Below are positions 11,363 to 56,028 of a stretch of 64,000 nucleotides of DNA, piece after piece. The notes beneath the pieces are model-generated. The model was not told where the DNA came from. It saw only the letters and a program-made list of their open reading frames with translations, and did no database searches. A program made the position numbers and the translations under genes. Position 1 is the stretch's first letter. Each line of letters starts with the position of its first letter. This DNA is from Clostridiales bacterium. GTDB taxonomy: Bacteria; Bacillota; Clostridia; Oscillospirales; CAG-272. The stretch is from the NCBI GenBank assembly GCA_012514145.1, contig JAAZAV010000033.1:8153-72152 (forward strand), read 5' to 3'.

Positions 11363-12856
11363 TTACGCCGCGGCTTCGTTGGCTGCGTATGCTTCTGCCA
11401 TCTTTTCTATCGCGGCTTTGTATTTCTCCTCATTGGCTGCGAAAGCCGACGCGATGTCGCGGGAGGGGTTGCCCTGGAAGCGGAAGTAGTTGGTGGGCGA
11501 GCCGGTGAGGGAGGTGCCGTAAACGAAGGTGAAGTTGAAGGTGGCGCCTTCACGTATGATGTCAAGCATCTCATGCATATCCCGGTCGCGGGCGTACTTC
11601 TCCTTCAGCGCTACCTCGTAGTAAACCGGGTTCACGTCGTAGTAGTTGTAGTAGCTGAGGCTCTCCATAACCTTGCCGGTGAGATCGAAGTCGGCGGCGG
11701 TCTTGGGGATGAAGATCATCTGGGTGGAGGTGCCCAGCTGAGCCAGATGCCTGTCCTGGTTCTCATCGTATTTGGGATAGGGGATAATGCCGTAGTCGTC
11801 TTCCATGTCGCGGAGATGCTCGGTAGAATAGATAAAGTTCGCCATGAGCAGAACCCGGCCTTCGTTGAAGTACTTCATGCTCTTGAAGGACTGGTCGTCG
11901 ATGGAGGAAACGCCGAAGGCGGTGCCCGAGCTCATGTTGAAATCGTAGAGCTTCTCATATGCGGCGACATAGCGCTCGCTGAGACCGAGATACTCGATCT
12001 TGCCGCCGGAGACGTTGACAACCGGCAGCTCAAGTGCGGTCTGGAAGGTGCCGTTGGGAACATACTCGGCGAGGAAACCGATCTCGTCGTCTTCAACCTT
12101 CATTACGCCGTCGCCGTTGAGGTCGGCTTTTACCGAGACGCCCATCTCGATGAATTTGTCAAGCACCCATTTGTTGCTGCGGACAAGCTCGTAGGGATTT
12201 TCAAGACCGTAGCTGTTGAGTTTGTTGACGTTGAAGAAGATAACGCTCAGGTCGGTGTAGAGCGACATGGAGATATCTCCGATTACGCCGTAGAGAATGC
12301 CGTTGACCGAGAAGCGGTCGAACATTTCGGCGATCCACCAGGGATTGTCGAAGTCGACGTACTTCATATTAGCCATGTTGTAAAAGTGACCGCCTGAGGA
12401 GGAGGGCATGACGCAGACGGTGGTGCCCGACACCATGTCGTAGGTGCTGTCGCCGGCAAGCACAGTGGAGGCTATGATGTCGTTGAAGGCGTTGCGGTCG
12501 TTCCAGTTGCCCGGCTTGTAGACGAACTCGAGTTCAATGCCCAAATGGTCCTCAACCTTCATGTTGGCGGCATAGACGGCATCGTCGACTATTTCGCCGG
12601 TCTGCTCACCGGTGCCGTGCTCATACTCGTAGTAGGAGTTGCAGAGAGTGACGAACTTGCGGCCTCCGTTGTCCTCTTTCTCGATGGAGAGAGGCAGGGT
12701 GGAGGGGGTTTCCTCTTCGGTCTCGGCGGTGTCGGCGGTCTCAGCGGTGGTTATATCGGGGGTGTCAGAGCCGGTATCGCCGCCGCATGCCGCCAAAGCA
12801 GCCGGCAGGGCGAGCATAGCCAGCAGGAGAAGCAGGGAAATGATTCTTTTTTCCAT
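11363..12856 (-). CDS. SBP-like lipoprotein, paralogue 1 of 10 (LplA/LipO-type solute-binding fold inferred)
   Basis: Start MEKRIISLLLLLAMLALPAALAAC|GG gives the lipobox, followed by a T/A/E linker. Family motifs are GEIVDDAVYAANMKVE, TVLAGDSTYDMV, FDNPWW, DLNGDGVM, DYGIIPYPKYDENQ and YYEVALKEKYARDRDMHEMLDII. Confidence 0.7.
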   Translation of the reverse strand: MEKRIISLLLLLAMLALPAALAACGGDTGSDTPDITTAETADTAETEEETPSTLPLSIEKEDNGGRKFVTLCNSYYEYEHGTGEQTGEIVDDAVYAANMKVEDHLGIELEFVYKPGNWNDRNAFNDIIASTVLAGDSTYDMVSGTTVCVMPSSSGGHFYNMANMKYVDFDNPWWIAEMFDRFSVNGILYGVIGDISMSLYTDLSVIFFNVNKLNSYGLENPYELVRSNKWVLDKFIEMGVSVKADLNGDGVMKVEDDEIGFLAEYVPNGTFQTALELPVVNVSGGKIEYLGLSERYVAAYEKLYDFNMSSGTAFGVSSIDDQSFKSMKYFNEGRVLLMANFIYSTEHLRDMEDDYGIIPYPKYDENQDRHLAQLGTSTQMIFIPKTAADFDLTGKVMESLSYYNYYDVNPVYYEVALKEKYARDRDMHEMLDIIREGATFNFTFVYGTSLTGSPTNYFRFQGNPSRDIASAFAANEEKYKAAIEKMAEAYAANEAAA

Positions 12857-12906
12857 AGAACAGGTATTTCCTTTCGATATTCGGTATTTTATTGTGCGGT
12901 ATCGAT

Positions 12907-12935
12907 ATTTTATCATTAACCGGACGTTTTGTCAA
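12907..12935 (-). promoter_or_regulatory. sigma-A-like promoter for paralogue 1
   Basis: On the minus strand: TTGACA (12930-12935), 17 nt, TAAAAT (12907-12912). Confidence 0.5.
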
Positions 12936-13139: not shown

Positions 13140-13169
13140 TTGACAGGCAGGCGGGGGCGGTGATATACT
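13140..13169 (+). promoter_or_regulatory. sigma-A-like promoter for the PIG-L gene
   Basis: TTGACA (13140-13145), 18 nt, TATACT (13164-13169). Confidence 0.5.
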
Positions 13170-13215: not shown

Positions 13216-13917
13216 ATGAAAGTACTTGGAATCGGCTGCCATCCGGACGATATAGAGGTGGCATGCGCGGGCACACTGGCGAAATACAAGAAGCTGGGAC
13301 ATGAGGTCACCGTCTGCCATGTGACCAACGGCGACATGGGACACGTTGAGATCATGCCGCCGGAACTGCGGGAGATGCGCATAGCCGAGGCGAAGAAGGC
13401 GGGTGCGCTGGCGGGCATCAAGGTAGTGACGCTGGACATAGGCGATCTGGTGGTCTATTCATCCGACCGCAAGCAGCGTGACGCGGTGGTTGAGGTTCTG
13501 CGCCAGGAACAGCCCGACGTGATAATCACCCACAGCCCAAACGACTACATGCCCGACCATACGGCGGTAAGCAGACTGGTGTTCGACGCATCCTTCGCGG
13601 CGAGCTGCCTCCACTACAATCAGGGACTGCCGGCCGCCCCGATAACGCCCATATACTATATGGACACCCTGGCGGGAGTGGGCTTCATGCCCACCGAATA
13701 TGTGGACATATCCGACACAATAGAGTTAAAGATCGAGATGCTGGAGTGCCATGTGTCGCAGCTAAAATGGATGCGCGACCATGACAATATCGACTTCGCG
13801 GAGTTTGTGCGCACCTGCGCCCGCTTCCGCGGCCTGCAGTGCGGCGTGCAGTATGCCGAGGCGTTCACGGCATGCAACGTCTGGCCGAGAATGGTGCCGA
13901 AGCGCATGCTGCCCTAA
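13216..13917 (+). CDS. PIG-L/LmbE-family N-acetylglucosaminyl deacetylase
   Basis: N-terminal CHPDDIEVACAGT and HSPNDYMPDH motifs. No signal peptide. Confidence 0.85.
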   Translation: MKVLGIGCHPDDIEVACAGTLAKYKKLGHEVTVCHVTNGDMGHVEIMPPELREMRIAEAKKAGALAGIKVVTLDIGDLVVYSSDRKQRDAVVEVLRQEQPDVIITHSPNDYMPDHTAVSRLVFDASFAASCLHYNQGLPAAPITPIYYMDTLAGVGFMPTEYVDISDTIELKIEMLECHVSQLKWMRDHDNIDFAEFVRTCARFRGLQCGVQYAEAFTACNVWPRMVPKRMLP

Positions 13918-14044: not shown

Positions 14045-14995
14045 ATGAATTTCATAAGCACACTCAAGGGGTCGGCGCTGGAGAACTTCTATCCGGCGGG
14101 CTGGGACTTTCAGAAGATCGATAAATGCTGCTCCAACGATCCGGATTCCTGGGGCGAGCGCCAGGCGTGGTGGCATAAGGAGTTCACGCCGGTCATATGC
14201 GACAGCATATACAACTTCGACACCTACATGGGGCACGAGATAGCCCTGCAGATAAAGAACGCACGTGACAGGGGCGAGAAGCTCATCTTCATACTGCCGG
14301 TGGGTCCCATGGGCATGTATAAATGGGCGGTCTACTTCCTCAAGGCGTGGAATGTGAAGTGCGATCACCTCTGGTGCTTCAATATGGACGAGTGGTCGGA
14401 CGGCGACGGCAACACACTGCCGGCGGACAATCCGGGCGCCTTCCAGAACGCCATGGAGCAGGCGCTCTACAATCCACTGGGCGAGCTGACGGTGCCGGTG
14501 GGACAGCGCAATTTCGCCACTAAGGAGAACCTGCCCACCTACGCGGGTAAGATAGCCGCGCTGAAAGCGGAGGGCGCCAAGATGGTGCTGGTCTACGGCA
14601 TCGGCAGAATGTGCCACATAGCATTCTGGGAGCCGACCTTCGCTGCCGACTATAAAAATGTGGACGACTGGAAGGCACAGACCCACAGGATAGGCGCGAT
14701 GCTGCATCCGCTGACCATAGAGCAGAACGCCCTGACCAGCTTCAAGAGCCGCACCACGCTGGTGCCCTGCCGCGCCAACACAATAGGTCCGGGCATCTTC
14801 CTGCAGGCCGACTACGCCATAGGCGGAGCGGACGGCACTCTGGGCAGAGGCATGCAGTGGCAGGGTATGAGCTTCTGGATGACCCTGCGCTACGGTCCGT
14901 CGCCCTGGGTTACCTCCTCCTTCATCCCCACGCTTAAAGGCAAGCTCTTCTTCCTGTCAGAGCTGGCGGGACCGCTGACCGCCGAGTGCAACTGA
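14045..14995 (+). CDS. glucosamine-6-phosphate deaminase/isomerase-like (NagB superfamily) protein
   Basis: The pattern ILPVGP...FNMDEW...[15 protein letters not shown] parallels the NagB motifs. It has an atypical long N-terminus and no signal peptide. Confidence 0.6.
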
Positions 14996-17959: not shown

Positions 17960-17988
17960 TTGACATTACCTTACTCGAATGGTACAAT
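17960..17988 (+). promoter_or_regulatory. sigma-A-like promoter for paralogue 2
   Basis: TTGACA (17960-17965), 17 nt, TACAAT (17983-17988). Confidence 0.55.
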
Positions 17989-18035
17989 AAAACCATACAA
18001 CACGTTTCCATTATTATACATATGGGGGTGCGATT

Positions 18036-19526
18036 ATGAAGATGCGACATTATCCGATAAAATCCTGCGTTACGATCCTCGCACTTGTTTTATTATGCGT
18101 GTTCACTTTTTCATGCGGTGAGAACCTGTCTGAAGCGGGAAGCAATGCCGCGACGGAAAACAGCGATGAAGTGCCGATCGGCGGTACCGCGACGGAAGCG
18201 GCCGCGATTCCGAAACCTCCGAAAGGCGACTATAACGGTTATGTGTTCCGCGTCGGACAGGGCGACCCCAGCCACAGCATTCGCGAGAAGCTTGTTGTGG
18301 TTGAGGAGCTTGACGGAGATCTCGTCAACGACGCTATTTACAATCGCAACAACAACGCCGCCGAACGCACGAACACAATAATTAAATCGGTCGCCATGGA
18401 GTCATATTCGGCGCTGAAAAATTCTGTGCTCGCGGGGGATGATTTTTGCGACGTCGCACTCGCCGATCCGTATAACTTTTATTCAAGCATCGGAAGCGGA
18501 ATTTTGATTGATGTAAATACTATCGACACTCTTGACACCTCAAACCCGTGGTGGGATCAGAACCAGGTGAGCGAGCTTGATATATACGGCAAGCTTTTTT
18601 CACTTGTCGGGGACATAACAACCACCGATGAATTCCACACTGTCTGTTTGATTTACAGCTGTAACCTTTTCGAAGATTTCGGTTTTGATTCACCATATTC
18701 GATGGTTGAGGATGGGAGCTGGACGCTTGACCGCTTCTTGGATATGTGCCGTGATGTCGCGGCGGATATTGACGGCGACGGCGTGATGGGAGAGTTCGAC
18801 CGTTGGGGGTTCACCACCGAATCGGCGATGATGAGCTGGATGTGCGATTCATTCGGCGCGCGCTCGATTTTGAGAGACAGCGAAGGCGAATTCAGCCTGA
18901 ATGTCAACGACAGCCTCGTCCGTTCCATAATCGACAGCGTGATACGCCTTGCCACCGAAAAGAATATCGTAACGATGGCAGGTGACGGTATAATAACGGC
19001 TTCAACATACGGCGATGTGTATTATCACATGGAAGCGCTTTTCGCGCAGGATTTGGCGCTGTTCCACAGCGGCACATTCGACGATTTGACGCGTATGCGC
19101 TCTTATGACGCCGATTACGGAATCGTACCGCTCCCGAAGTTCAACGAGTCGCAGGAAAAATTTTACCACAGCGTGTCCTGGACAGGTGTACAGCTTGTAA
19201 TTCCGGCGACTGTCGAAAACACCGATTTGGTCGGCACCGTGCTTGAGAATATGGGCTGGGAGTCGCACTTCACATTGAATCCGGTGTTTTATGAATTGTT
19301 TATAAGTGAGAAGCTGGCAAGAGACGAGAAGTCAAAAGCAATGCTTGATATGATATTTTCGACAAAATATTACAGTTTGGACGATTACGCGAATATCAGC
19401 GGTCTTAACACAATAATAAATAAGATAGCTGCTTCAAAAGAAAACACTTTCGCATCCGATTGGGCGGCAAATGAAGCTAAAGCGGTTGCAAACCTTTCCA
19501 AATTTCTCGAACCTTTTCGAAAATAA
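18036..19526 (+). CDS. SBP-like lipoprotein, paralogue 2 of 10 (low-GC copy)
   Basis: Lipobox VFTFSC|GE. Motifs GDLVNDAIYNRNNNAAERTN, SVLAGDDFCDV, TSNPWW, DIDGDGVMGEFD, DYGIVPLPKFNESQ and FYELFISEKLARDEKSKAMLDMIF. Confidence 0.7.
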   Translation: MKMRHYPIKSCVTILALVLLCVFTFSCGENLSEAGSNAATENSDEVPIGGTATEAAAIPKPPKGDYNGYVFRVGQGDPSHSIREKLVVVEELDGDLVNDAIYNRNNNAAERTNTIIKSVAMESYSALKNSVLAGDDFCDVALADPYNFYSSIGSGILIDVNTIDTLDTSNPWWDQNQVSELDIYGKLFSLVGDITTTDEFHTVCLIYSCNLFEDFGFDSPYSMVEDGSWTLDRFLDMCRDVAADIDGDGVMGEFDRWGFTTESAMMSWMCDSFGARSILRDSEGEFSLNVNDSLVRSIIDSVIRLATEKNIVTMAGDGIITASTYGDVYYHMEALFAQDLALFHSGTFDDLTRMRSYDADYGIVPLPKFNESQEKFYHSVSWTGVQLVIPATVENTDLVGTVLENMGWESHFTLNPVFYELFISEKLARDEKSKAMLDMIFSTKYYSLDDYANISGLNTIINKIAASKENTFASDWAANEAKAVANLSKFLEPFRK

Positions 19527-19647
19527 CGGGTCTGCCGAAAAAGACGTGAAACCCCTTTTTAGGCACAATATGCTCATTTGTTAATATATTAAAAATCGTT
19601 AAATCGTTTATTGATTTCACGGTTTCTTAAATAGCGGAATTATTTAT

Positions 19648-19789
19648 GGGGGCGGTATCAAAACTCCCTGATAATACAATTGCACATAAAATATCGCTGT
19701 TAAAACACCCGAAACGGTGTTTTAACAGCGATATTTATTACTGTTTTTTGCGGTTTACCGGTTTGCGCGGAGTTTTGATACAGCCCTCC
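19648..19789. repeat. nested inverted repeat: outer ~20-bp arms around an inner perfect 21-bp hairpin
   Basis: Outer arms are GGGGGCGGTATCAAAACTCC (19648-19667) and GGAGTTTTGATACAGCCCTCC (19769-19789). Inner arms are 19689-19709 and 19716-19736. Confidence 0.75.
19689..19750. terminator. bidirectional terminator between paralogue 2 and hppA
   Basis: A 21-bp perfect stem (AAATATCGCTGTTAAAACACC / GGTGTTTTAACAGCGATATTT) with loop CGAAAC and T-rich flanks. Confidence 0.7.
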
Positions 19790-19811
19790 CGGTTAATCAG
19801 GCCATATTAAA

Positions 19812-21902
19812 TCAACCGAACAGCGAGAGGGTGAGGAACAGGGTTGACATAAGGGAGGCTACAAGAGATACGACGGTTATCTGGGTGTTGATGGACGGTC
19901 CCGCGGTGTCCTTGAAGGGGTCGCCCACCGTGTCGCCCACGACCGCCGCTTTGTGAGCCGGAGAGCCCTTGCCGCCCTCGTTGCCCGCCTCGACATATTT
20001 CTTTGAGTTGTCCCAGAGTCCGCCGGAGTTGCTCATGAACAGCGCCAGCAGCAGTCCGCTGATGATATTGCCGCAGAGGAAGCCGCCGATAGCCTGCACG
20101 CCGCCCACAAAGCCCACCACAAGGGTGGCGATAATGGCGGTGAGTCCGGCGGGGATAAGTTCCTTCATCGCGCCCGTGGTGGCAATGGTGATACACTTGT
20201 CATACTCGGGCTCTACGCCTTCTTTGCCCTCCTTAAGGCCGACGATCTCACGGAACTGGCGGTGTATCTCGGCGACAAGACGCTGCGCGTTGCGGTCGAC
20301 GCCGAGAATCAGCATTGCCGAGAAGACGGCGGGGATAGCCGCGCCGATGAGCAGCCCGAAGAACACCAGCGGGTTCATTATGTCGAAATTCTCGATGCCT
20401 TTGATTCCGAGTTCCGCGGCGGCGATGTTGACTTCGCTCATGAAGGCTCCCAGAAGGGAAATGACTGTCAGACCGGCTGCCGATATGGCGAAGCCCTTGG
20501 TAACCGCCTTGACCGTGTTGCCAGCGGAGTCCAGCTCGTCGGTTATTTCTATGACATCCTCGCCCAGGTTGCCCATCTCGGCAAGTCCGCGGGCGTTGTC
20601 TACTATTGGTCCGTAGGCGTCGTTGCTGACTATCATGCCGACTATCGAGAGCATGCCCACCGCCGCCATCGAGATGCCGAACATGGAGTATTCAAGGGCG
20701 AGAGCGGGATCGATAGATTCGCAGAGCTTATACGCGGCAAGGGCGGAGACGCCGATGCCTAACATAGCCGGGAGCACACTGAGCAGACCGTAGGAAATAC
20801 CCGACAGTATGGTGAACGCCGGACCGATACCGCTGGCTTTCGCGACCATTTTGACCGGCTTTTTCTTGTCGTCGGTGAAATAGTCGGTGGTTATGCCGAT
20901 GACGACTCCGACTAAAAGACCGACGATGCAGGCGAGCCAGATGCGCCAGTTAAATTTGAAAATTGCCGTCGCGGCGGCGGTGAGAACGATATAGACGCCG
21001 GTTGTCACATAAGTACTGGAGTTGAGCGCCCTGGTGGGGCTGCCCTTTTTGCCGATACGCGCGGTCATGACGCCGATCACCGAAGCCAGCAGACCGAGAG
21101 CCGCGAAGCAGAACACCATGGAAATATTCGTTCCGAACTTCTCCTTGTCAATCGAACCGGCGAGCACCAGCGCCGCCGCCATGGACGCCACGTTGGAGTC
21201 AAAGAGGTCGGCGCCCATTCCGGCGACGTCGCCCACGTTGTCGCCAACGTTATCGGCGATAACGGCGGGGTTGCGCGGGTCGTCCTCGGGTATGCCGAGT
21301 TCAACCTTGCCGACCAGGTCGGCGCTTATGTCGGCTGTCTTGGTGAAGATGCCGCCGCCCGCCTTGGCGAACATGGCGAGGGAGCTTGCGCCGAAGCTGA
21401 AACCGAGCACGGTGGTGGCGTCGCCCGTCAGAAGGTAGACGATGGTCACGCCGAGCAGGCTGGCTCCGACGACCGCCATTCCCATGACGGCGCCGCCGCG
21501 GAAGCCCGCCATGAACGACGGCTTGATGCCCGATTTAGCCGCTTCCGCCGCTTTTACATTGGCTATGGTGGCGACCTCGATACCTATCAAGCCGGCTATT
21601 GCCGAGAACGCGGTTCCCATAAGGTAAGATACCGCCATCAGCACGTTGTTAATAATATTCCCTTTCCATATCGGAGAAGGGAGCAGAATCAGGATCAGAA
21701 CTGCTGCGACAAGCGCGAAACGGGCGAGGACCGTGTATTCTTTCCGCAGGAAGGTTCTTGCGCCCTGACGGATAAGACCGCCGTTCTTTGCTATGATCGG
21801 ATTGTCGGACGGCTGCCGCTTTACCCATAAGAACAGCCATCCGGCGAAGGCAAACGCTACCAATGAAATCAGTATTGACAGGTACAACATGAGTTTTTCC
21901 AT
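19812..21902 (-). CDS. hppA: membrane-integral H+-translocating pyrophosphatase, K+-independent-type signature
   Basis: 696 aa and multi-TM. Motifs GDNVGDVAGMGADLF and DTVGDPFKDTAGPSIN. GNTVKAVTKGFAIS has Lys/Thr at the positions that distinguish K+-independent enzymes. Confidence 0.92.
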   Translation of the reverse strand: MEKLMLYLSILISLVAFAFAGWLFLWVKRQPSDNPIIAKNGGLIRQGARTFLRKEYTVLARFALVAAVLILILLPSPIWKGNIINNVLMAVSYLMGTAFSAIAGLIGIEVATIANVKAAEAAKSGIKPSFMAGFRGGAVMGMAVVGASLLGVTIVYLLTGDATTVLGFSFGASSLAMFAKAGGGIFTKTADISADLVGKVELGIPEDDPRNPAVIADNVGDNVGDVAGMGADLFDSNVASMAAALVLAGSIDKEKFGTNISMVFCFAALGLLASVIGVMTARIGKKGSPTRALNSSTYVTTGVYIVLTAAATAIFKFNWRIWLACIVGLLVGVVIGITTDYFTDDKKKPVKMVAKASGIGPAFTILSGISYGLLSVLPAMLGIGVSALAAYKLCESIDPALALEYSMFGISMAAVGMLSIVGMIVSNDAYGPIVDNARGLAEMGNLGEDVIEITDELDSAGNTVKAVTKGFAISAAGLTVISLLGAFMSEVNIAAAELGIKGIENFDIMNPLVFFGLLIGAAIPAVFSAMLILGVDRNAQRLVAEIHRQFREIVGLKEGKEGVEPEYDKCITIATTGAMKELIPAGLTAIIATLVVGFVGGVQAIGGFLCGNIISGLLLALFMSNSGGLWDNSKKYVEAGNEGGKGSPAHKAAVVGDTVGDPFKDTAGPSINTQITVVSLVASLMSTLFLTLSLFG

Positions 21903-25257: not shown

Positions 25258-25345
25258 ACCGTTCTCCTGTTGCCGATGTTATTTATGTTTCCTGTTCCGG
25301 TTATCATTATACAACTTATATCTCATCGCCGAATTATAATGTTAT

Positions 25346-43285: not shown

Positions 43286-44257
43286 ATGACCGAAAATACG
43301 GAAGTAAAAACCCCCGCGACAGAAGAAGTTTACGCCCTTTTCCGCGAGACGATGCCCTTTGCGGTGATAAGCGACGGAGCCGCCCGATATGTTATTGGAA
43401 AACCGGAGAACACGCTGCTCTTCCGCCGGAACGAGAAGGGCGAACTCATCGCCGCCCTGGTCCTCGAAACCGACACGGTGCTGTTTTTGGGAGTGCGCGA
43501 GAATTTCCGCCGCCGGGGCATCGCAGGCGAACTACTGTCGGAAGCCGAGGAACTGGTGAAGGCGGCGGGTCACAAATATATCAGAATCGGCGCGGGAAGG
43601 GATTACCTCACTCCCGGTGTGCCGATGGCCGAACCGGTAGGCGATGTAAAATTTTTCCTGCCGCCCGATATAGTGCCGGGCATAGACAGGAGTGCCGCCG
43701 GATTCTTCATCCGTCGGGGTTACCGCCACGGCTGGGGCGAGGACAACTGCTTCGACATGCAAATGTCGCTCACCGAACCGGGGCTGTCATTCCCCGCGGA
43801 GGGCGAGACAATAGACGGCATCACCTACCGTATCGCCGTAAAGGGCGACATCGAGGGCGCCTGCCGCTGCACCGACGACGCTCATCCCGATTTCACCAAA
43901 TACTACCGGAGCGAGTCGCTGTATGAATACAATCACCATCCCGGAAAGCACGTGAAGGGCGGCGAGGTCAGCTTTGCCCTTGTCGCCGAAGCCGACGGGG
44001 AGATCGCAGGCACGCTGATAATCAGCCTCAACGCGGGAGGCGAGGGCATCGGCAGCGTGGGCTGCACCGCGGTTGCCCGCAAATACAGAAAACGCCACAT
44101 AGGGGTCAACATGGTGCGGGTGGGCACCGGAATTCTTGCGGAGGCTGGGATGACTCTCGGGTTTCTCGGCTACACCTACACAGGGCTTGACCGCATGTAC
44201 GGCTATTCGGGCTACCGGGTGCGCAACTTCTGGCTCATGGCGCACAAGGATTTTTGA
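43286..44257 (+). CDS. tandem GNAT-fold acetyltransferase
   Basis: Two GNAT-like halves are present (FRRRGIAGELLSEAEELV and ARKYRKRHIGVNMVRVG). Confidence 0.65.
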   Translation: MTENTEVKTPATEEVYALFRETMPFAVISDGAARYVIGKPENTLLFRRNEKGELIAALVLETDTVLFLGVRENFRRRGIAGELLSEAEELVKAAGHKYIRIGAGRDYLTPGVPMAEPVGDVKFFLPPDIVPGIDRSAAGFFIRRGYRHGWGEDNCFDMQMSLTEPGLSFPAEGETIDGITYRIAVKGDIEGACRCTDDAHPDFTKYYRSESLYEYNHHPGKHVKGGEVSFALVAEADGEIAGTLIISLNAGGEGIGSVGCTAVARKYRKRHIGVNMVRVGTGILAEAGMTLGFLGYTYTGLDRMYGYSGYRVRNFWLMAHKDF

Positions 44258-44331
44258 CCCGAAAACACGTCTTGCGGCATCGCCTGATTTCGGCTTTTCC
44301 GCACGCCGCATATAACGAAAGGATAAAGGAT

Positions 44332-47359: not shown

Positions 47360-47389
47360 ATTATCTTCAATAATTATGCGCAAAAGCCG

Positions 47390-48469
47390 TCAGCTGCCGA
47401 ATACGCCTGCCATTTCGATGGTGGCGAAGTCGTCCATGGGCAGCTTTACCGGCATGCCGGTTTTCTGACTGCGGTAGATGGCGAGCACCAGTTCAAGGGC
47501 GCGGCGGCCGTCGTATGCCGAAACATAGGGCTGGCGGTCGTTCTTTATGGCGTCGATGGTGTCGGCGTATATGGCGTGATGGCCGTTGCCGTAGACATTG
47601 GCTGAAGCCTCGTGCAGTTCCCGGGCGGCTTCGTCGCCGGAATGTTCGTCGGCGAAATCCCAGTTTTCAACCTTGTTGACGTTGGTGCCGCCTATCTTGA
47701 CCGTTCCGGTTTCGCCGAATACACAGAGTGTCTCCTCCATGTCCTTCGGATAGACATTTACCGTTCCCTCGATTGTCGCAACGGCGCCGTTTTTGAAGCG
47801 CACCACCGCAACGCCGATATCCTCACCCTCGATATAGTCGTGGTGGCGGTTGGCGGTGAAGCCGTATACGGTGTCAATATCATTGCCCATGACCCAGCGC
47901 AGCAGGTCGATGCCGTGTATGCACTGGTTCATAAGGGTGCCGCCGTCCAGCGCCCAGGTTCCCCGCCAGGTAGCCTGATCGTAATAGGCGCGGTCGCGCA
48001 TCCAGCGGATGTTCACCGAGCCGTGGGAGAGTTTCCCGAAGCGCCCGGCGTCGAGCGCAGCCTGCAGCTCCTGTATGGCGTCGTTGAAGCGGTTCTGATG
48101 GCAGGCGCTGACCTTCACGCCCTTAGCCTCCATGGCGGCGATAATCCGATCGGCGTCGCCCAGCGACATGGCTATGGGCTTCTCGATTATCACATTGCAG
48201 CCGGCGTTGATGCAGTCTACGGCAATCTCGGCGTGGCAGCCGCTCTCGGTTGCTATGCCCACAAGTTCCGGCGACTCGTTTGCCAGCAGGTCGCGGTGGC
48301 TTGTGTAGCGGCGGATTTTATCTGCGCCGGGCAGATTGTGGCGGGCGGCAATAGCCTCCATGTGCTCGGGGATAACGTCGCAGAGGGCTATGATATCAAG
48401 CCCGTTTTCAAGCGCCGAGCGGACGTGGTTCGTCGACACGCGCCCGCAGCCGATAAGTGCGTACTTCAT
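47390..48469 (-). CDS. Gfo/Idh/MocA-family NAD(P)-dependent oxidoreductase
   Basis: MKYALIGCGRVSTNH Rossmann N-terminus with a typical C-terminal alpha/beta domain. ATG at 48469. Confidence 0.8.
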   Translation of the reverse strand: MKYALIGCGRVSTNHVRSALENGLDIIALCDVIPEHMEAIAARHNLPGADKIRRYTSHRDLLANESPELVGIATESGCHAEIAVDCINAGCNVIIEKPIAMSLGDADRIIAAMEAKGVKVSACHQNRFNDAIQELQAALDAGRFGKLSHGSVNIRWMRDRAYYDQATWRGTWALDGGTLMNQCIHGIDLLRWVMGNDIDTVYGFTANRHHDYIEGEDIGVAVVRFKNGAVATIEGTVNVYPKDMEETLCVFGETGTVKIGGTNVNKVENWDFADEHSGDEAARELHEASANVYGNGHHAIYADTIDAIKNDRQPYVSAYDGRRALELVLAIYRSQKTGMPVKLPMDDFATIEMAGVFGS

Positions 48470-48613
48470 ATCGCAGTGTCCTTCCTGATTTGAGTTCTGC
48501 TCCGCCGTGCGGGGCGGGGATGGTGTGGGTTGGGTATCTTGAATTTGTTGTATTTTACTATAACACCATGCATTTGTTAATACAATATCCACAAAAACAG
48601 GCAGGCATGACCT

Positions 48614-49348
48614 TCAGAATATCCGCCGGTGAGGAGCGCGCCATAACCTGTTTTTCAGTCGTCTTAGTATGGAGCTAACCGACATGAGCCGCGGCGGGCG
48701 TGCACTTGCGCCAACTCCATTGTCGCAAGTGCCGATAAATTTCATAATGCCGTCGGCGGCACCCTCGACGATTTTGCGGCGGTAGGAGCCGCGCGACAGC
48801 TTCACATCCTCACCGGGACAGGTTATGAAGCCCGCCTCAAGTATGGCCATGGGGACGCGGCAGTGATTCTGGACGGTCAAGCCGTCGTTTTCGTGCACGC
48901 CGGCGTCGCGGCAGCCGGTTCTTTTGACAACCCCCCAATGCACCCATTCGGCGAGGCGCCGGCATTCCGGGTATAGCTCCGGATTATAGGGATTTGCCGG
49001 ACTGCGGCAGAGCGTCTGGGCGCCCTTTATCTTAGGGTTTTTGTGGGCGTTGGCGTGCAGGGAGATCATCGCGTCGGCGCCGGCGGCATTGGCGATTTCG
49101 GCGCGCTCCGAATTGCTTGGACACTCATCCGCGCTTTCGCGGGTGAGAATGACATTGCAGCCCCTCTCCGTGAGAATATCGCGCAGCATAAAGGCAAGAG
49201 CGAGATTGAATTCATGCTCGTGTATGCCGGTTTTCACCCCCATCGTTCCGGGGGCGCTGCGGGCTTTGGTCTCGGACGCCCCGGGACCGATTGGCTCCTG
49301 CTGCGGGTCGGGGCAGGCACTGTGGCCGGGGTCGATTACTATGGTCAT
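48614..49348 (-). CDS. leaderless N-acetylmuramoyl-L-alanine amidase (Amidase_3)
   Basis: MTIVIDPGHS, SLHANA and ILEAGF motifs. No signal peptide. Confidence 0.75.
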   Translation of the reverse strand: MTIVIDPGHSACPDPQQEPIGPGASETKARSAPGTMGVKTGIHEHEFNLALAFMLRDILTERGCNVILTRESADECPSNSERAEIANAAGADAMISLHANAHKNPKIKGAQTLCRSPANPYNPELYPECRRLAEWVHWGVVKRTGCRDAGVHENDGLTVQNHCRVPMAILEAGFITCPGEDVKLSRGSYRRKIVEGAADGIMKFIGTCDNGVGASARPPRLMSVSSILRRLKNRLWRAPHRRIF

Positions 49349-49391
49349 GGCGTTATCCTCATGCCGCATATTGCAATATGCGGTGCCGGGA

Positions 49392-50867
49392 TCAGTTCAG
49401 TTCGGCAAAGATCTCCATTGTGTCGGCTATCTTCTGCTCTACGGCGCTGCGCGCCGATTCGACGGTGGACGCCACAGAGCTGTTGCCGGCGAGCAGCAGG
49501 TTCTGAATGCCAGTGTTGAGCGAGGCGCACCAGTTGTAGGGCACGCTCATGTCCACGTCACGGGTGGCGCGGATGATGGCAAGCATGTCGATCGAACGCT
49601 CGTCGCGCAGACCCTTTGTGGAGACGTGGGTGTCGAAGTAGACGGGCAGGGTGGTGTAGACGCTCTCGCCCGACAGGGCGTCGGTGATGACGCCTATCTT
49701 TGAGGGGTCGGGATTTGTGGTGGGTATGCAGAACACCAGCACCCGGTCGACCATGTTGCTGTGGTGCCCCTCCTGCTGCTCGTCGAATTTGGGGTAGGGA
49801 ACCAGACCGAAGTCCACCTCGTTGGCGCGCATCTGAAGCCCCGCCTTGATCTCGCCGGCGAGGAAAAGGGCGCGTTCGTTCATAAAGAGGTAGAGATAGC
49901 TGTTTTTCTCCACGGCGCCGGTTGTGGCGTTGGCATAGGCTCCGTCATTTCCGCCCAGCATGGGGGCTATCTTGTCGCAGACCTTGAAGAAACGCTCCAT
50001 TTCGGGCATGAAGGTCAACTCGCCCTTGTCGTTTTTGTCAACATACTTGATTCCGCAGCCGAAGAGCATCTTGGTCACCGAGTTGTAGAAGGCGGACAGA
50101 CCGTATATCTGATTGCTGTTCACCGTAAGGGTGAAGTCGTCGTCGCCGTTCAGGTTGGCTGCCGGTTTCATATAGGAGTAAAGGGCGTCAAGCGTCCACC
50201 TGCCCTTCTCCACCAGATCGTAAGGCTCGTCCAACCCAAGGTCAGCCATCATCGCCTTGTTGAAGAAAAGGCACCAGGTGCCGTCGAACGCCATGAGATT
50301 CAGATCTCCCGTGGCGTAGAACAGCTTGTCATAAACGGTCATGCCGTCGATAACCGGCTGATCCCACCATTCCTCGTCAAGCCGCAGCTCGGGAATGCCG
50401 TGCAGATTGTAGAACAGACCGCCGGTCACCAGCGGCGCGGAGTCCCGGTCGGGCACGTAGCAGGCGTCGAAGTCGTCAGAGCCGGCAAGCACCGAGGTCT
50501 GAATCCGGGTGTCAAGGTCGTCGAATTTTTCCTCGGTCACCTTTATGTTGAAGTTCAGCTTCTGCTCGACGGCGCGGTTGCGGGTATACACCGTGTCGTC
50601 CAGCGCGTCGCCGGTCATCTCCTCAAAGTCGAGGTATATATACATCTCCCATACCGCCGCCGAGTTGAGGTATCGGGCGGTATAGCCGTTAAGGTCGACA
50701 TCGGGATAATCATATGAGGGGAGAGTTGTCTCATCCGCCGCGGTTTCGGTGACGGCCGGATCCGCCGCGGCAGTCGTATCGGCAGAGCCGCCCCCGTTGC
50801 CGCCGCAGGAAAGAATCGTTGAGCCGAGCACGCAGGCGAGGAGGAACATATAAATCAGTTTTTTCAA
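49392..50867 (-). CDS. SBP-like lipoprotein, paralogue 8 of 10 (degenerate Ca-loop)
   Basis: Lipobox TILSC|GG. Motifs GDALDDTVYTRNRAVEQKLNF, SVLAGSDDFDA, LDEEWW, NLNGDDDFT, DFGLVPYPKFDEQQ and YFDTHVSTKGLRDERSIDMLAIIR. Confidence 0.7.
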   Translation of the reverse strand: MKKLIYMFLLACVLGSTILSCGGNGGGSADTTAAADPAVTETAADETTLPSYDYPDVDLNGYTARYLNSAAVWEMYIYLDFEEMTGDALDDTVYTRNRAVEQKLNFNIKVTEEKFDDLDTRIQTSVLAGSDDFDACYVPDRDSAPLVTGGLFYNLHGIPELRLDEEWWDQPVIDGMTVYDKLFYATGDLNLMAFDGTWCLFFNKAMMADLGLDEPYDLVEKGRWTLDALYSYMKPAANLNGDDDFTLTVNSNQIYGLSAFYNSVTKMLFGCGIKYVDKNDKGELTFMPEMERFFKVCDKIAPMLGGNDGAYANATTGAVEKNSYLYLFMNERALFLAGEIKAGLQMRANEVDFGLVPYPKFDEQQEGHHSNMVDRVLVFCIPTTNPDPSKIGVITDALSGESVYTTLPVYFDTHVSTKGLRDERSIDMLAIIRATRDVDMSVPYNWCASLNTGIQNLLLAGNSSVASTVESARSAVEQKIADTMEIFAELN

Positions 50868-50869: not shown

Positions 50870-51187
50870 CTACTCCGCCCCCGTTTCGTTTTGGGCGGCC
50901 TCGCGGTCGAGGGCGCGGTTGCGGAAATAAAGTATTATGTCGGTGCCTACCATGATGAAGTTGAGTATGTAGAATACAACCACATAGGTCAGGGGCTTGA
51001 CATCGGTGAAATGCCCTATCAGCTTGGCGGCGATACCGAAGAGGTAGCCTGTCTCGATGAAGCAGAGAAAGAGCAGTGATTTGCCCTTCGCGGTGCGGGC
51101 TTTCCAGGATTTCATAATAGACAGAGGCCAGGATATGCCGAAGCAGATAACCATTACCGATTCAAAAATATCAATAATCGCTTCCAT
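50870..51187 (-). CDS. 3-TM PQ-loop/SemiSWEET-like small membrane protein
   Basis: 105 aa with three predicted helices. ISWPLSIMKSWKARTAKGKSL resembles the PQ-loop motif (P-Q/L-x2-K-x2-K-x-[ST]-x2-G-x-S). Its stop lies 2 nt before the paralogue 8 start. Confidence 0.45.
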   Translation of the reverse strand: MEAIIDIFESVMVICFGISWPLSIMKSWKARTAKGKSLLFLCFIETGYLFGIAAKLIGHFTDVKPLTYVVVFYILNFIMVGTDIILYFRNRALDREAAQNETGAE

Positions 51188-51224
51188 TATCTCACTTCCT
51201 TATATTTTATTATTTATATGATTG

Positions 51225-52637
51225 TCAGAACAGCTTTTTCAGCACCGACAAAATTACCAGCGCGCCGGCTGAACAGAGTATGGCGCACATGACAAAGTAT
51301 ACCACGCTTCCTGCGGGTTTGCCAAAAATCATGTCGCCTTTTTCGGCGTCGGAGGGGGTTGAAATTTCATTCTCCGTAATGTCCGCGCCGGGAGTCTCCG
51401 ACGGTTCTGCCGCCGCGGCGTCAGTCGGCTCGGCGGGTTCAGTGGGTCCGGGCGTGGTTTTGAGAGTCGGTTCGCCGGGCCTGGTTGTCACCCCGGCGGG
51501 CGGTTTGGCGGTGGTTTCGGGCACGGGCTTTGTTGTAGTGCCGGGAGTTTCGGGAGCCGCGGTGGTTTTAGCCGTTGTCGCGGGCGGCTCGGTTCGCGCG
51601 GTAGTGGCGGCGGGAGGAGTAGTGCGCGCCGTTGTGGTTGCCTTGGGAGTGGTAACGGCTGTCGTGGTTACCGGCGCGGTCACCGGCGGCTCAGCCTGCT
51701 GTCCGGTGGTGACCGGTGTTTCGGGTGCCGCCGTGGTGTCGGGAGTATCGCCGCCTTCGCCCGGCGTATCGGGCGCAGGCGATACAAGCGCCAGAGTTCC
51801 GTCCTCGGCGTACCGGTAGACAGCCCCGTCAGACATGTGAATGCTCACCGGCTGACCCGACTTGTTGACACCTGCCAGCGCCGCTGTAAGCATGTTTGCC
51901 TTGCCCGTATCGGCGTAGGTGAAGCCCACAATAAGCTCGCTCAGCGATTCGCAGCCGTAGAAGGCTTCGGCGCCCACATAGCAGGAGGCGGGTATGGTGA
52001 CGGTGGTCAGCGACGAGCAGCCTGAGAAGGCGCGGCTGTGGATCTCAGTCAGGCTGCTTGGCAGGCCGATGCGCTTCAGCGACGAGCAGCCCTCAAAGGC
52101 GGAGCCGCGTATGGAGGTGGTGCCGATAAGGGTCAGCGCCGTGATCTTTTTATTGTTGTAGAATGTCCAGGAGGGAATCTCGGCGGCGTTCAGCGCCAGA
52201 CCGCCGCTCAGCCCCTCGGGGATGTAGAGCAGCTGCCCGGAGGAAGTGAACACGATGCCGTCCATGCTGTAGAAGTGGCTGCCGGCCTCAAAGAGCACCG
52301 CTTCAGCGGTGGGACACCAGCTCACAGGCGGCACGCTGCCGTCAAAGGTGATGCCGATGTCGGTCACCGACGCCGGTATGAGTATTGACTTCACCGTGTC
52401 GGCGTAGAGGAAGGCGTTTGGCGCTATCTTCGTCACCTGTATACCGTTGATCTCGCCCGGCACTTCGATGCTTATGTCGCTGCCGTTGTATTTTGTGATG
52501 GTTATCTCGTTGTTTATGCTGTTGTATGAGAAGTTGTTGTATACCGCCGCCGACAGTCCCATACCCGGCGCGCGGGGCATCAAAGTCAAAATTATCATCA
52601 GCAGCAGAAGATATGCCGCAATGTGCTTTATTCTCAT
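51225..52637 (-). CDS. BspA-type leucine-rich-repeat surface protein with Thr/Pro-rich stalk and C-terminal TM anchor
   Basis: Signal peptide MRIKHIAAYLLLLMIILTLMP. LRR_5-like repeats include SAFEGCSSLKRIGLPSSLTEIHSRAFSGCSSLTTVTIP. The stalk is about 150 aa of T/P/A. C-terminal TM VVYFVMCAILCSAGALVILSVL. Confidence 0.75.
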   Translation of the reverse strand: MRIKHIAAYLLLLMIILTLMPRAPGMGLSAAVYNNFSYNSINNEITITKYNGSDISIEVPGEINGIQVTKIAPNAFLYADTVKSILIPASVTDIGITFDGSVPPVSWCPTAEAVLFEAGSHFYSMDGIVFTSSGQLLYIPEGLSGGLALNAAEIPSWTFYNNKKITALTLIGTTSIRGSAFEGCSSLKRIGLPSSLTEIHSRAFSGCSSLTTVTIPASCYVGAEAFYGCESLSELIVGFTYADTGKANMLTAALAGVNKSGQPVSIHMSDGAVYRYAEDGTLALVSPAPDTPGEGGDTPDTTAAPETPVTTGQQAEPPVTAPVTTTAVTTPKATTTARTTPPAATTARTEPPATTAKTTAAPETPGTTTKPVPETTAKPPAGVTTRPGEPTLKTTPGPTEPAEPTDAAAAEPSETPGADITENEISTPSDAEKGDMIFGKPAGSVVYFVMCAILCSAGALVILSVLKKLF

Positions 52638-52714
52638 CGAAAAAGTTACCTCCGGAGGCGCATTTCCGTCCGCCCGGCGCATCACATCCGCCGCCGGCTC
52701 GGGCAATTACCGCC

Positions 52715-52743: not shown

Positions 52744-52957
52744 CATAATACTTTCAATAAGTTTTGATTTTCGGGAAAAAGAGCCCGATTATATATAATA
52801 TTATCGAAAGATAAGGACAGGCTGCATATTTAGCCGTAACCGAGGTTTATTTCTCCCGCCTGCGCTTCCGGTTTCGGTATCCATATCATGTGTCATATGT
52901 CATACGTCATACATACGCCCCCTGTTTACCCGGTGCGTAAAATCGGCGTTTTCACCA

Positions 52958-52986
52958 TTGAATACATTCTCGTCATGGTGTATACT
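52958..52986 (+). promoter_or_regulatory. sigma-A-like promoter for paralogues 9 and 10 and the GH genes
   Basis: TTGAAT (52958-52963), 17 nt, TATACT (52981-52986), preceded by TG. Confidence 0.5.
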
Positions 52987-53040
52987 GTGTATAGGTTTTA
53001 TCGGCGATTCAAAACCATACGGATATATATGAGGTATAGT

Positions 53041-54543
53041 ATGAAACGTTCAATATCACTGATTTTAACCCTTGCCATGCTCGTTCTGCCGGTCCTTGCC
53101 GCCTGTTCCGGGGAGGGCGGAACTTCCTCCGCTGATACCGCCGCCGCGGACGCCTCACACGATACGGTTGAGACTGCCGGATCAATAGCCCTTGCCGACA
53201 TGACCGACGGACTTGAGGACAGGGACATGAACGGCTGGGAGCTGTCAATTCTCAACTGGGACGGCGGAACGCTCACCTGGGCAAACGTGGTTATCACCCC
53301 CGAAGCTCTTGACGGCGACACCCTGAACGACGCCATCTATCAGCGCAACGCCGACCTCTGCGAGCGCTTCAACATCACAATCCGCGCCGACGACTCAAAG
53401 AGTGTTCAGTCGGAGATGGCACGAAACGTGACCGCCGGCGACGATGTTTACACAATATACCTCTCAAACGAGGCATACGGCGGCAATCAAGGCATCGCAG
53501 GTCATATCCCTTATGCTCTGGACTGGCAGGAGATTCCCTGTCTGTCGCTTGATTCGCCCTGGTGGAATCCCGATGCCACCTCGGTCTACAAGCTCTCGGG
53601 GCATCAGGTTGCCCTCGCCGGAAACTGTTCGCTTACGGTGGTCTCCCGCGCCGTATGCATGGTGTTCAACAAGGTAATCTGGGAGGACGCCGGTACCGGC
53701 GAGAACCTCTATTCGCTTGTCGACTCCAACAAATGGACGGTTGACAAGTATCTGGAGGTCACAAAAGAGATCGGCCGCGACCTCAACGGCGACGGCGTCA
53801 TGGACAAGAACGACCTCTGGGCGCTTAATATGGGACGCGGTTTCAAGGGCTACACCGCCTCCTTCCTTGCCGGTTCGGGCATGAACTATACCGAGCCCGC
53901 CGGTGACGGCTCCTATGTCTTTGCCCTCGATTCAAATGAGAAGGCTCTGACCCTCCTTGCCAAGCTGGTGGACGCCCTTGCCGTTGAGGGTTACTGCTAC
54001 AACGAGGACGCGTCTGTTCACTCCTTCGCCCCCTCCGACCACTTCAAGAACAGCCACGCCCTCTTTACCCAGGGCGTGCCGAACGATATCTACAAGCTCC
54101 GGGATATGGAGGACGATATCGGCCTGCTTCCCATGCCCAAGCACGACGAGTCTCAGGAAAACTTCTACTCGGCAGCCTGGGGCGGCGCCGTCTGGACGCT
54201 GGCGCGCACATTCGACATGGACTTCGCCGAAAACCTGGGCATGACCCTGGAGGCGATGTCCTTCGCCGGCTGGCGGGATGTGATACCCGTCTACAAGGAG
54301 ATAGCCCTCAAGACCAAGACCGCCCGCGACAACGAGTCCGAGGCTATGCTCGACATCATCTTCGGCTCCATATACTTCGACTTCGGTACGAACATCTGTT
54401 ACGACGCGGTGCTTGCGCCTACCTTCCTCACCGATATCTGGCACAGCAGGGACTCGGGCGCCATTGTATCGACTATCGAAAAGTATAAACCGAAAATCAA
54501 CCAGTATATCACCGACCTGGTTATTGTCGCTTCCGAGATGTGA
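53041..54543 (+). CDS. SBP-like lipoprotein, paralogue 9 of 10
   Basis: MKRSISLILTLAMLVLPVLAAC|SG gives the lipobox. Motifs GDTLNDAIYQRNADLCERFNI, NVTAGDDVYTIY, LDSPWW, DLNGDGVMDKND, DIGLLPMPKHDESQ and VYKEIALKTKTARDNESEAMLDIIF. Confidence 0.7.
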   Translation: MKRSISLILTLAMLVLPVLAACSGEGGTSSADTAAADASHDTVETAGSIALADMTDGLEDRDMNGWELSILNWDGGTLTWANVVITPEALDGDTLNDAIYQRNADLCERFNITIRADDSKSVQSEMARNVTAGDDVYTIYLSNEAYGGNQGIAGHIPYALDWQEIPCLSLDSPWWNPDATSVYKLSGHQVALAGNCSLTVVSRAVCMVFNKVIWEDAGTGENLYSLVDSNKWTVDKYLEVTKEIGRDLNGDGVMDKNDLWALNMGRGFKGYTASFLAGSGMNYTEPAGDGSYVFALDSNEKALTLLAKLVDALAVEGYCYNEDASVHSFAPSDHFKNSHALFTQGVPNDIYKLRDMEDDIGLLPMPKHDESQENFYSAAWGGAVWTLARTFDMDFAENLGMTLEAMSFAGWRDVIPVYKEIALKTKTARDNESEAMLDIIFGSIYFDFGTNICYDAVLAPTFLTDIWHSRDSGAIVSTIEKYKPKINQYITDLVIVASEM

Positions 54544-54576
54544 GGTTTTATGTATTGTAATAAATGAAGGGTATTA

Positions 54577-56028
54577 ATGAATATGAAGATGTATGTTCGT
54601 CTGATTTCACTGATCCTTGCCGCCGCATCTGCAGCGCTGTTAGTATCCTGCGGCGGAACGCCGCCCACCGGTTCAGACGAGGCGACCGCCTCCGGTACCG
54701 ATACCGCCATAACCGAAGCCGATGTCACAACCGAGCTGACCGACGATCTCCCGCCCCTTGATTTCGAGGGTCATGAGTTTCTGGTCTACAGCCGCTACGC
54801 TCCCCTGTACTTCCTGGGACCGCTGGATGTGGAGGCTGAGAACGGCGAGGTGGTTAACGATGCCATCTTCCGCCGCAACCGCACCGTTGAGGAACGGCTG
54901 AATATTGTCTTTACCGAGCTCACCTACACCAACAACGACCAGCCCCGCACTCTGCTGCTTGCCGCCGACGACACCTATGACATGATGCAGGCCAAGGGTC
55001 TGAACGCCTTCAACTATGCCGCCGAGGGTCTGCTCCGCGAATGGAAGGAGCTTGACTACATCGACCTTGACAAGCCCTGGTGGGATATGTCAATCACCGA
55101 TGCGCTTTACATCAAGAACAAGCTCTACTTCGCCGTGGGCGCTTACAATCTGTCATCCTATGAGTTCACCCACATGCTGCTCTTCAACAAGAACCTTGCG
55201 GAAAACCTGAATCTCGGCGACCTCTATGCCATTGTCAATGACGGCAGCTGGACCTTCGACAAATTCCACTCTCTGGCTTTGCAGGCGGTGACAGACCTTG
55301 ACGGCGACGGCAGGTTCACCGATGCCGATCAATATGGTCTTGTCTCCCAGCCCAAGCAGGTGCTGCCCTGCTTCTGGATCGCCGCAAACGTGCTCTCAAT
55401 CGACCGCGATGCCGACGGCACACTTACCTTCGCGGCCAAGGAAAACCCAAAGTTCGCCGAGGTCTATCAGCGGATATTTGAAGTCACCCGGGGCGACAAT
55501 ATCTTCTACGAGATGAGCATCTCCCTCGACGACGTAAACGAGATTTCGAAACTGTTTGTCGCCGGTCAGTCGCTCTTCCACGATGTGGACTGCAACCGGG
55601 TTCCCTCCCTCCGCTCAATGGACACCGACTTCGGTATACTGCCTTTCCCCAAATATACCGAGGCTCAGGACAGATACTATACCCGCATAGAGGGCTGTGA
55701 GATGCCCATTATCCCCCTTGCCGTTGGAAATCTCGACCGCACGGGTGCCATTCTCGAGGCTATGTCATCTACTTCCTACACTACGGTTGTTCCCGCCTAT
55801 TATGAGGTCGCCCTGAAGGGCAAATATACCCGGGACGAAACGTCGGTGGAGATGCTGAATATCATATTCGGCAACCGGGTCTATGACCTGGGCGACACAA
55901 TTCTCACTTCCGAAATGCGCGACGGACCCTTCCGTGAGAAGTATGCCGCCGATGACCGGGATCTCGCCTCCACCCTCGCTACCATGGAATCGGCAGTCCT
56001 CGCAAAGTTAAAGAAATTCAGCGAATGA
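54577..56028 (+). CDS. SBP-like lipoprotein, paralogue 10 of 10
   Basis: Lipobox LLVSC|GG. Motifs GEVVNDAIFRRNRTVEERLNI, LLLAADDTYDMM, LDKPWW, DLDGDGRFTDAD, DFGILPFPKYTEAQ and YYEVALKGKYTRDETSVEMLNIIF. Confidence 0.7.
   Translation: MNMKMYVRLISLILAAASAALLVSCGGTPPTGSDEATASGTDTAITEADVTTELTDDLPPLDFEGHEFLVYSRYAPLYFLGPLDVEAENGEVVNDAIFRRNRTVEERLNIVFTELTYTNNDQPRTLLLAADDTYDMMQAKGLNAFNYAAEGLLREWKELDYIDLDKPWWDMSITDALYIKNKLYFAVGAYNLSSYEFTHMLLFNKNLAENLNLGDLYAIVNDGSWTFDKFHSLALQAVTDLDGDGRFTDADQYGLVSQPKQVLPCFWIAANVLSIDRDADGTLTFAAKENPKFAEVYQRIFEVTRGDNIFYEMSISLDDVNEISKLFVAGQSLFHDVDCNRVPSLRSMDTDFGILPFPKYTEAQDRYYTRIEGCEMPIIPLAVGNLDRTGAILEAMSSTSYTTVVPAYYEVALKGKYTRDETSVEMLNIIFGNRVYDLGDTILTSEMRDGPFREKYAADDRDLASTLATMESAVLAKLKKFSE

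Follow-up and report, generated by a model that had tools for sequence, protein, structure and literature searches.

The lipoprotein family

The DNA analyzed here, referred to throughout as the window, is a 64,000-nucleotide (nt) stretch of the genome of an uncultured Clostridiales bacterium of gut or digester origin (GTDB lineage Oscillospirales, CAG-272; assembly GCA_012514145.1, contig JAAZAV010000033.1, positions 8,153 to 72,152). Within 45 kb of the window lie ten genes, here called S1 to S10, whose products are lipoproteins of 483 to 517 amino acids (aa). An earlier reading made from the letters alone (the original prediction) had listed ten open reading frames (ORFs) as members of one family resembling solute-binding proteins (SBPs), and all ten were found at the coordinates it gave. 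Searched with a hidden Markov model (HMM) of the family, the window yielded these ten and no others, at E values from 1e-137 to 1e-186. On the plus strand are S2 (18036-19526; 496 aa; E=1e-137), S4 (35756-37246; 496 aa; E=9e-167), S5 (37369-38922; 517 aa; E=5e-141), S6 (41740-43245; 501 aa; E=8e-186), S9 (53041-54543; 500 aa; E=1e-137), and S10 (54577-56028; 483 aa; E=1e-161). On the minus strand are S1 (11363-12856; 497 aa; lipobox LAAC; E=6e-169), S3 (23779-25257; 492 aa; E=1e-154), S7 (45851-47359; 502 aa; E=5e-166), and S8 (49392-50867; 491 aa; E=2e-145). For three of the ten, the longest ORF extends further upstream (11363-12916, 45851-47383, and 52888-54543), and the shorter starts chosen earlier give proper signal peptides; for S1 the shorter start is favored because its promoter (12935-12907) lies downstream of the longer start.

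The common architecture proposed for the family was borne out by a MAFFT alignment of the ten proteins, in which 22 invariant and 22 nearly invariant columns cover every motif that had been named (G..F, GD..NDA.Y.RN, SVLAGDD, PWW, D.NGDG, DYGI.PYPK.DE.Q, and K..RDE.S..MLDII). Inspection of the alignment placed a lipobox of the form L/I-x-A/S/V-C-G/S in all ten, and its cysteine is invariant both in these and in 63 of 63 family sequences, so the proteins are indeed lipoproteins. The suggestion that they might be wall tethered did not hold, since a lipid anchors them in the membrane. A T/A/E/D-rich stretch follows the cysteine, and residues 20-43 of the S6 model described below are disordered, with a predicted local distance difference test score (pLDDT) of <50. 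The stretch is thus predicted to be a disordered linker of ~25-45 residues that tethers the receptor on the outer face of the membrane.

Pairwise protein identity among the ten is 25-33% (mean, 29%), and the adjacent copies S4/S5 and S9/S10 are no more similar than other pairs. The earlier statement that there is no DNA-level repeat is essentially right, as blastn among the ten genes returned matches of just 22-85 nt, located over the conserved motifs. Four members have cross-species counterparts in other metagenome-assembled genomes (MAGs) at about 46-63% identity: S1 (52-54% in three other MAGs), S3 (47-49%), S10 (46-47%), and S6. These counterparts indicate that the paralogy predates speciation and, together with the low identity among the ten, support old paralogues rather than a recent repeat.

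An AlphaFold2 (AF2) model of S6, built from a 63-sequence alignment, had a pLDDT of 90.8 and a predicted template modeling score of 0.86. In a Foldseek comparison of this model with the PDB, the top matches were all CUT1-type sugar SBPs or maltose-binding protein fusions (E of ~1e-12); they included UspC, a fucosyllactose binder, a beta-L-arabinobiose binder, AbnE, UgpB, CbpB, and MalE, with template modeling scores of up to 0.64 and ~12-16% identity in the structural alignments with CUT1 SBPs. The two-lobe SBP fold that had been proposed was therefore found. A profile search of PDB sequences gave AbnE (6rjy) as the sole match at E of ≤0.001 (E=1e-3), in an alignment that spans the D.NGDG loop. 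Pfam recognized the family poorly: S8 scored 27.7 bits against SBP_bac_1 (cutoff, 26), S7 stayed below threshold at 14.7 bits, and the other eight had no relevant Pfam match. Neither DUF3502 (at E of ≤1) nor TctC was matched by any of the ten, and NCBIfam returned signal-peptide noise only, while some homologues carry precomputed PF01547 or PF13416 matches. An hhalign comparison of the family with an approximate E. coli MalE sequence gave a 56-column, low-probability match that sets the AGDD..D strand motif opposite ATGDGPD of MalE; its topology is sensible, and it is too weak for mapping docking residues.

Fold and profiles together place the family among the CUT1-type sugar SBPs, as a divergent clade. 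It resembles CUT1 proteins (AraN/AbnE, UspC, UgpB, and MalE) in the two-lobe type II binding-protein fold, those of Gram-positive bacteria in lipoprotein anchoring, and AbnE in the D.NGDG loop, but its members are ~60-100 residues longer, carry extra C-terminal helices, and are systematically not encoded beside two BPD_transp_1 genes. The original label, LplA/LipO type, fits less well. LplA/LipO lipoproteins share with the family a size of ~500 aa, a lipid anchor, and an association with glycoside hydrolases (GHs), whereas the family has no DUF3502, and its genes have neither LplB/LplC-type permeases nor a YesM/YesN-type sensor pair as neighbors. Since none of the ten matches DUF3502 and one reaches the SBP_bac_1 threshold, the proteins are not LplA/LipO proper. 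A role of the SBP fold other than binding, for example as an enzyme or chaperone, might be read into the unusually many conserved polar residues (D95, R100, N101, D359, K367, Q372, K427, R430, and D431) and into the failure of Pfam SBP models to recognize most members. We consider such a role very unlikely, because every one of the closest structural matches is an SBP that binds a ligand, AbnE has its own D.NGDG loop at the aligned position, and enzymatic functions are already provided by the neighboring genes.

The family is large. When 1.84 billion cluster representatives (clusters at 50% identity) were searched with a family profile, 7,343 proteins matched at E of ≤1e-30 and 12,380 at E of ≤1e-10, and the best 150 matches listed were 468-510 aa long. 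The matches with a named source were all from MAGs of uncultured Oscillospiraceae, Ruminococcaceae, Clostridia, Clostridiales, or Eubacteriales, annotated as "hypothetical," "extracellular solute-binding protein," or similar ABC substrate-binding names. A motif-based scan of GTDB species genomes with the ten-sequence alignment found at least 587 stretches, and among the best 80 of these, single MAGs contributed up to seven loci; a genome likely holds many more members than the ten in the window.

Gene neighborhoods in the window and in relatives

Neither the window nor the 10 kb beyond either end contains a sugar permease or a sugar-type ATPase. As had been stated, the only ATP-binding cassette (ABC) system in the window is the zinc transporter (znuA/znuC/ABC-3 permease, 26835-29472). 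Just two regulators were found, a Fur/Zur-type protein and an extracytoplasmic function (ECF) sigma factor, with a few small ORFs lacking a Pfam family or left unsearched. The claim that Zur and an ECF pair are the only regulators therefore stands for the Zur-type protein and the sigma factor; the ORF presumed to be the partner of the latter (31117-31716) lay outside the searches.

We sampled relatives at 83 related loci, covering 1.1 Mb and 154 family members. A Pfam search of all 55 multi-transmembrane ORFs found BPD_transp_1 at a single locus, L009, which carries four such proteins, and neither tblastn with these four nor jackhmmer seeded with them found further permeases at the 83 loci. 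The MsmX-type Walker A motif was absent from every related locus searched. With 82 of the 83 loci free of ABC permeases and an adjacent permease pair in just one, the arrangement seen in the window is conserved in relatives and the window is no exception; 163 of the 164 members examined have no adjacent permease. The orphan arrangement is a family trait. In a curated Firmicute lipoproteome, 2 of 45 SBPs were orphans, and Firmicute sugar ABC systems commonly have no ATPase of their own and borrow a shared one (PMC13068155). The missing ATPase, which had been counted as part of the oddity, is for this reason ordinary, whereas the missing permeases are not. Literature searches found no description of the family or of the arrangement, in agreement with the earlier view of an apparently uncharacterized organization. 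What is new is a very large, unrecognized clade of sugar SBPs that is systematically uncoupled from permeases.

An assembly or binning artifact could in principle have removed or misplaced permease genes, as the source is metagenomic and several assemblies break inside the pair of GH28 paralogues, at one point within the second. We regard this as extremely improbable. Identical proteins in the same gene order recur in at least five independent assemblies (ERZ27268617, JGI 3300026311, ERZ773285, ERZ747220, and SRR5007708), which argues against an artifact. Independent assemblies also supply the 10 kb beyond each end of the window, where sugar permeases are again absent, and the orphan pattern is seen on annotated contigs as long as 1.28 Mb. 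It is also distinctly unlikely that the receptors belong to one-to-one ABC systems whose dedicated permease pairs lie unlinked elsewhere in the genome. Gene order on MAG contigs is sampled only in part, which leaves room for such pairs, but no stand-alone permease pair was seen in the ~1.1 Mb around family members or in 84 kb of the window organism, and pairs scattered in this way should have appeared there many times.

Clustering of the neighboring genes at the 83 loci identified one recurrent neighbor, an AraC-family regulator with a cupin/AraC_binding sensor domain. Of 37 copies, spread over 27 loci, 19 directly adjoin a family gene and are transcribed away from it. Counted by member, 25 of 163 have such a regulator as a neighbor, in most cases in divergent orientation. 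Their sensor domains are of the AraC_binding/cupin type, not receiver domains. The earlier statement that no member has a regulator is thus specific to the window, which contains no regulator of the AraC type; relatives often have one. In a Pfam search of 140 immediate neighbors, 15 were AraC regulators and the remainder were varied cytoplasmic sugar enzymes; the enzymes found next to members in relatives comprise GH2, GH20, PfkB, Gfo/Idh/MocA, flavin adenine dinucleotide oxidoreductases, xylose-isomerase-like proteins, and deacetylases. Neither the 140 immediate neighbors nor the neighbor clustering revealed a histidine kinase, a chemoreceptor, or any other recurrent membrane partner.

Within the window, the family genes stand alone or in short operons with enzymes. 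Enzyme genes adjoin SBP genes on the same strand at distances of 2-63 nt, and scans for promoters and terminators were consistent with the operons proposed here. S5 heads a plus-strand operon (S5, GH28-like, GH28-like, S6, GNAT, and GH27-like) with a promoter matching 11/12 positions at 37303-37331 and 15 nt between S5 and the next gene. Its enzymes are two paralogous GH28-like beta-helix proteins of 454 and 453 aa (38938-41676, plus strand; Pfam Glyco_hydro_28, 34 and 30 bits), followed downstream of S6 by a GNAT acetyltransferase of 323 aa and a GH27-like alpha-galactosidase of 498 aa (together 43286-45750, plus strand; Acetyltransf_1, and Melibiase_2 with Melibiase_C). The cassette varies at the strain level: in one assembly (ERZ747220, locus L179), the GNAT and GH27-like genes downstream of an identical S6 are replaced by an AP_endonuc_2 (xylose-isomerase-like) gene and a 95-aa ORF.

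S9 (promoter-like site, 52958-52986) and S10 precede a GH29-like gene of 326 aa and a GH5 gene of 364 aa (56069-58179, plus strand; Alpha_L_fucos, 27.7 bits, and Cellulase, 110.8 bits), and the same order recurs at loci L167 and L168. The minus-strand operon starts from a promoter-like site at 52757-52728 and runs through a BspA-type leucine-rich repeat (LRR) protein, a 105-aa membrane protein, S8, an Amidase_3 protein, a Gfo/Idh/MocA oxidoreductase, and S7, ending at a terminator-like hairpin (45791-45779). The oxidoreductase and the amidase, a cytoplasmic Amidase_3 of the MurNAc-L-Ala amidase type, occupy 47390-49369 between S8 and S7 (minus strand; both assigned by Pfam), and the membrane protein and LRR protein (Pfam LRR_5) occupy 50870-52706.

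S1 is its own transcription unit, with a promoter matching 11/12 positions (12935-12907) and a bidirectional hairpin (11280-11312). It is divergent from an operon led by a PIG-L family de-N-acetylase (13216-13917, plus strand; Pfam PIG-L, 97.6 bits; promoter 11/12 at 13140-13169). S4 is monocistronic between a promoter-like site (35677-35705) and a hairpin terminator (37265-37285), and S2 is monocistronic with a promoter matching 11/12 positions at 17960-17988 and a terminator with a 20-bp stem at 19690-19735.

Inspection of N termini found no signal peptide in the GH28-like pair, the GH27-like, GH29-like, and GH5 proteins, the GNAT protein, the Gfo/Idh/MocA oxidoreductase, or the PIG-L deacetylase, which implies that the linked enzymes act on imported substrate. 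For cre (CcpA) sites, a scan gave 5 matches against 2.9 expected, none of them at an SBP promoter.

Some further features of these gene groups are recorded here. S2 (GC content of 0.49) lies in a low-GC patch (18000-20000) between its strong promoter and the 20-bp-stem terminator and may have been acquired separately; GC content dips to 0.47-0.51 there and at 24000-32000 and 58000-60000, against a background of 0.55-0.60. The 105-aa protein (50870-51187, minus strand) consists of three hydrophobic helices and is encoded 2 nt upstream of S8 in the shared operon. Its first helix may resemble the PQ-loop/SemiSWEET signature; the protein had no match in Pfam, among PDB sequences, or with Foldseek (poor single-sequence AF2 model, pLDDT of 64). 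The BspA-type LRR protein (51225-52706, minus strand) is a cell-surface protein whose long P/T-rich stalk is accompanied by an anchor at the C terminus. The PIG-L operon opposite S1 also contains a well-formed 316-aa ORF with no Pfam family (14045-14995, plus strand), which lies between the PIG-L and DUF2284 genes.

Proposed shared import and a candidate translocator

The explanation that we consider probable is that the family consists of substrate-specific CUT1-type receptors, encoded in cassettes without membrane parts, that hand their ligands to a small number of permease pairs, perhaps a single one, encoded at a distance and powered by a shared ATPase. Each gene would encode a lipid-anchored, two-lobe receptor for a sugar or oligosaccharide, the old copies having presumably diverged in ligand. 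Each gene forms a small, presumably substrate-specific cassette, either by itself or together with genes for cytoplasmic glycosidases and enzymes that modify sugars, to which relatives often add an AraC regulator. A loaded receptor would diffuse in the membrane and dock on one of the CUT1 permease pairs encoded elsewhere, an MsmX/MsmK-type ATPase would power import, and the cassette's own cytoplasmic enzymes would then cleave the imported oligosaccharide.

The original prediction had offered two readings, many binders feeding a few translocators or glycan capture independent of ABC import, and the first fits better because the cotranscribed glycosidases, having no signal peptides, act on imported sugar. 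The second would make these proteins surface receptors for glycan capture or sensing that never dock on an ABC translocator. It draws on the absence of an adjacent permease in all but one of the members examined and on the fact that SBP-fold proteins can serve sensors, as ChvE does with VirA (PMC13068155). We judge it unlikely, given that the neighbors include no recurrent kinase, chemoreceptor, or membrane partner, that the linked AraC regulators are cytoplasmic and need an imported inducer, and that the linked glycosidases are cytoplasmic as well.

Sharing of a membrane part by several binders has precedents. HisJ and ArgT share HisQMP. In Borrelia, OppA1-5 serve one Opp translocator (PMC5736914), and in P. 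aeruginosa, DppA1-A5 work with DppBCDF (PMC4206461). As in our proposal, the binder sets specificity in these systems, the membrane part is shared, and the genes of some binders lie apart from the operon of the permease. They differ in having two to five peptide or amino acid binders, whereas here there are ten in 45 kb, with putative sugar substrates and a sharing that we infer.

Bug binders of Bordetella likewise far outnumber membrane components. In this greatly expanded TctC-like family, most of the periplasmic binders are orphans and few ligands are known (PMC11452294). It resembles the present family in its massive, lineage-specific expansion of orphan binders and differs in belonging to another superfamily, in using tripartite tricarboxylate transporters, in its location in the Gram-negative periplasm, and in its size (~300 aa). 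A further parallel, the group II energy-coupling factor (ECF) transporters, has scattered S-components that share one energizing module (PMC7755397). Like the system proposed here, it is a hub-and-spoke arrangement in which dispersed, separately regulated specificity subunits compete for a shared module, but the S-components are integral membrane proteins with no soluble binder, and the proteins are unrelated.

A candidate for the shared translocator comes from L009, where a permease pair lies directly upstream of a family member, which in turn precedes a GH20 gene. These permeases are part of a larger module (1-9801 of L009) that consists, in order, of a giant SBP_bac_1 protein of ~1,000 aa, two permeases, a Yip1/NHL membrane protein of ~710 aa, a DUF5696 protein of ~1,010 aa (longer in some loci), and two more permeases. 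Further copies occur at L084-L166 and L173-L175, and gene order is identical across the 83 further loci with sufficient flanking sequence. The last permease of the module is 76-93% identical across >100 clusters, which in our judgment, made without a comparison set, looks high for a sugar permease. The module contains no ATPase gene, and its second permease pair has no binder gene besides the giant SBP at its head. A sample of ~2 Mb from these lineages contained BPD_transp_1 proteins inside the module only, and a literature search found no paper mentioning DUF5696. The giant SBP was considered as a relative of the family and rejected, as it shows no similarity beyond the signal peptide.

Several observations weigh against delivery to a shared translocator of this kind. 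Eight of the ten members in the window fail every Pfam SBP model. Just two module loci, L009 and L084, carry a family member, so linkage is not preferential, and most module-bearing lineages seem to have no family member nearby. No sample or sequence link was found between any copy of the module and the window organism. The tetranucleotide correlation of module loci with the window organism reached 0.85 at best, compared with 0.96-0.98 for contigs of the same genome; a near-identical permease (P0388) comes from samples in which the window organism was not detected; and by megablast the module loci did not overlap with the family loci. The module is thus a candidate hub and a lead rather than a finding. 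The stronger proposal, that in some uncultured Oscillospiraceae/Clostridia dozens of independently regulated, horizontally shuffled cassettes feed one ultraconserved DUF5696 module, is speculative, and we hold it to be rather unlikely.

Automated prediction of sugar utilization relies on operons of SBP, permease, and hydrolase genes. Because the family is largely missed by Pfam and almost never lies beside permeases, this approach cannot at present read the carbohydrate niche of many uncultured Clostridia from guts and digesters. Should many receptors indeed share one translocator, the system would lend itself to asking how one permease surface fits dozens of partners that are 25-30% identical and how competition among receptors sets substrate priority. 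The cassettes would then be compact, portable specificity modules, and a hub-and-spoke arrangement would be the sugar-ABC counterpart of the group II ECF transporters.

Other features of the window

The zinc operon (26329-30545, minus strand) consists of znuA, the ATPase gene, and the ABC-3 permease gene, followed with a 4-nt overlap by a gene for a Cys-rich lipoprotein of 169 aa without a Pfam family. A 124-aa membrane protein that carries CHDCSGDDCPVCLC is encoded at its flank, adjoining the Fur/Zur-type regulator; this protein and the 169-aa lipoprotein may be accessory metal-handling proteins. A 579-aa protein (32993-34732, plus strand) combines an N-terminal signal or transmembrane segment, an Amidase_3 domain, about six Cys-rich repeats, and a C-terminal transmembrane segment with an Arg-rich tail. 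Its repeats, of the form C..C ... C..CG spaced by T/V-rich strands, have no Pfam match.

A well-formed ORF of 206 aa (2980-3600, minus strand) belongs to no Pfam family. A cell-surface SGNH esterase with three S-layer homology (SLH) domains is encoded at 8527-9960 (plus strand), and these domains imply an S-layer-type wall. At 60438-61985 (plus strand), the window encodes another cell-surface protein, a CotH-family lipoprotein.

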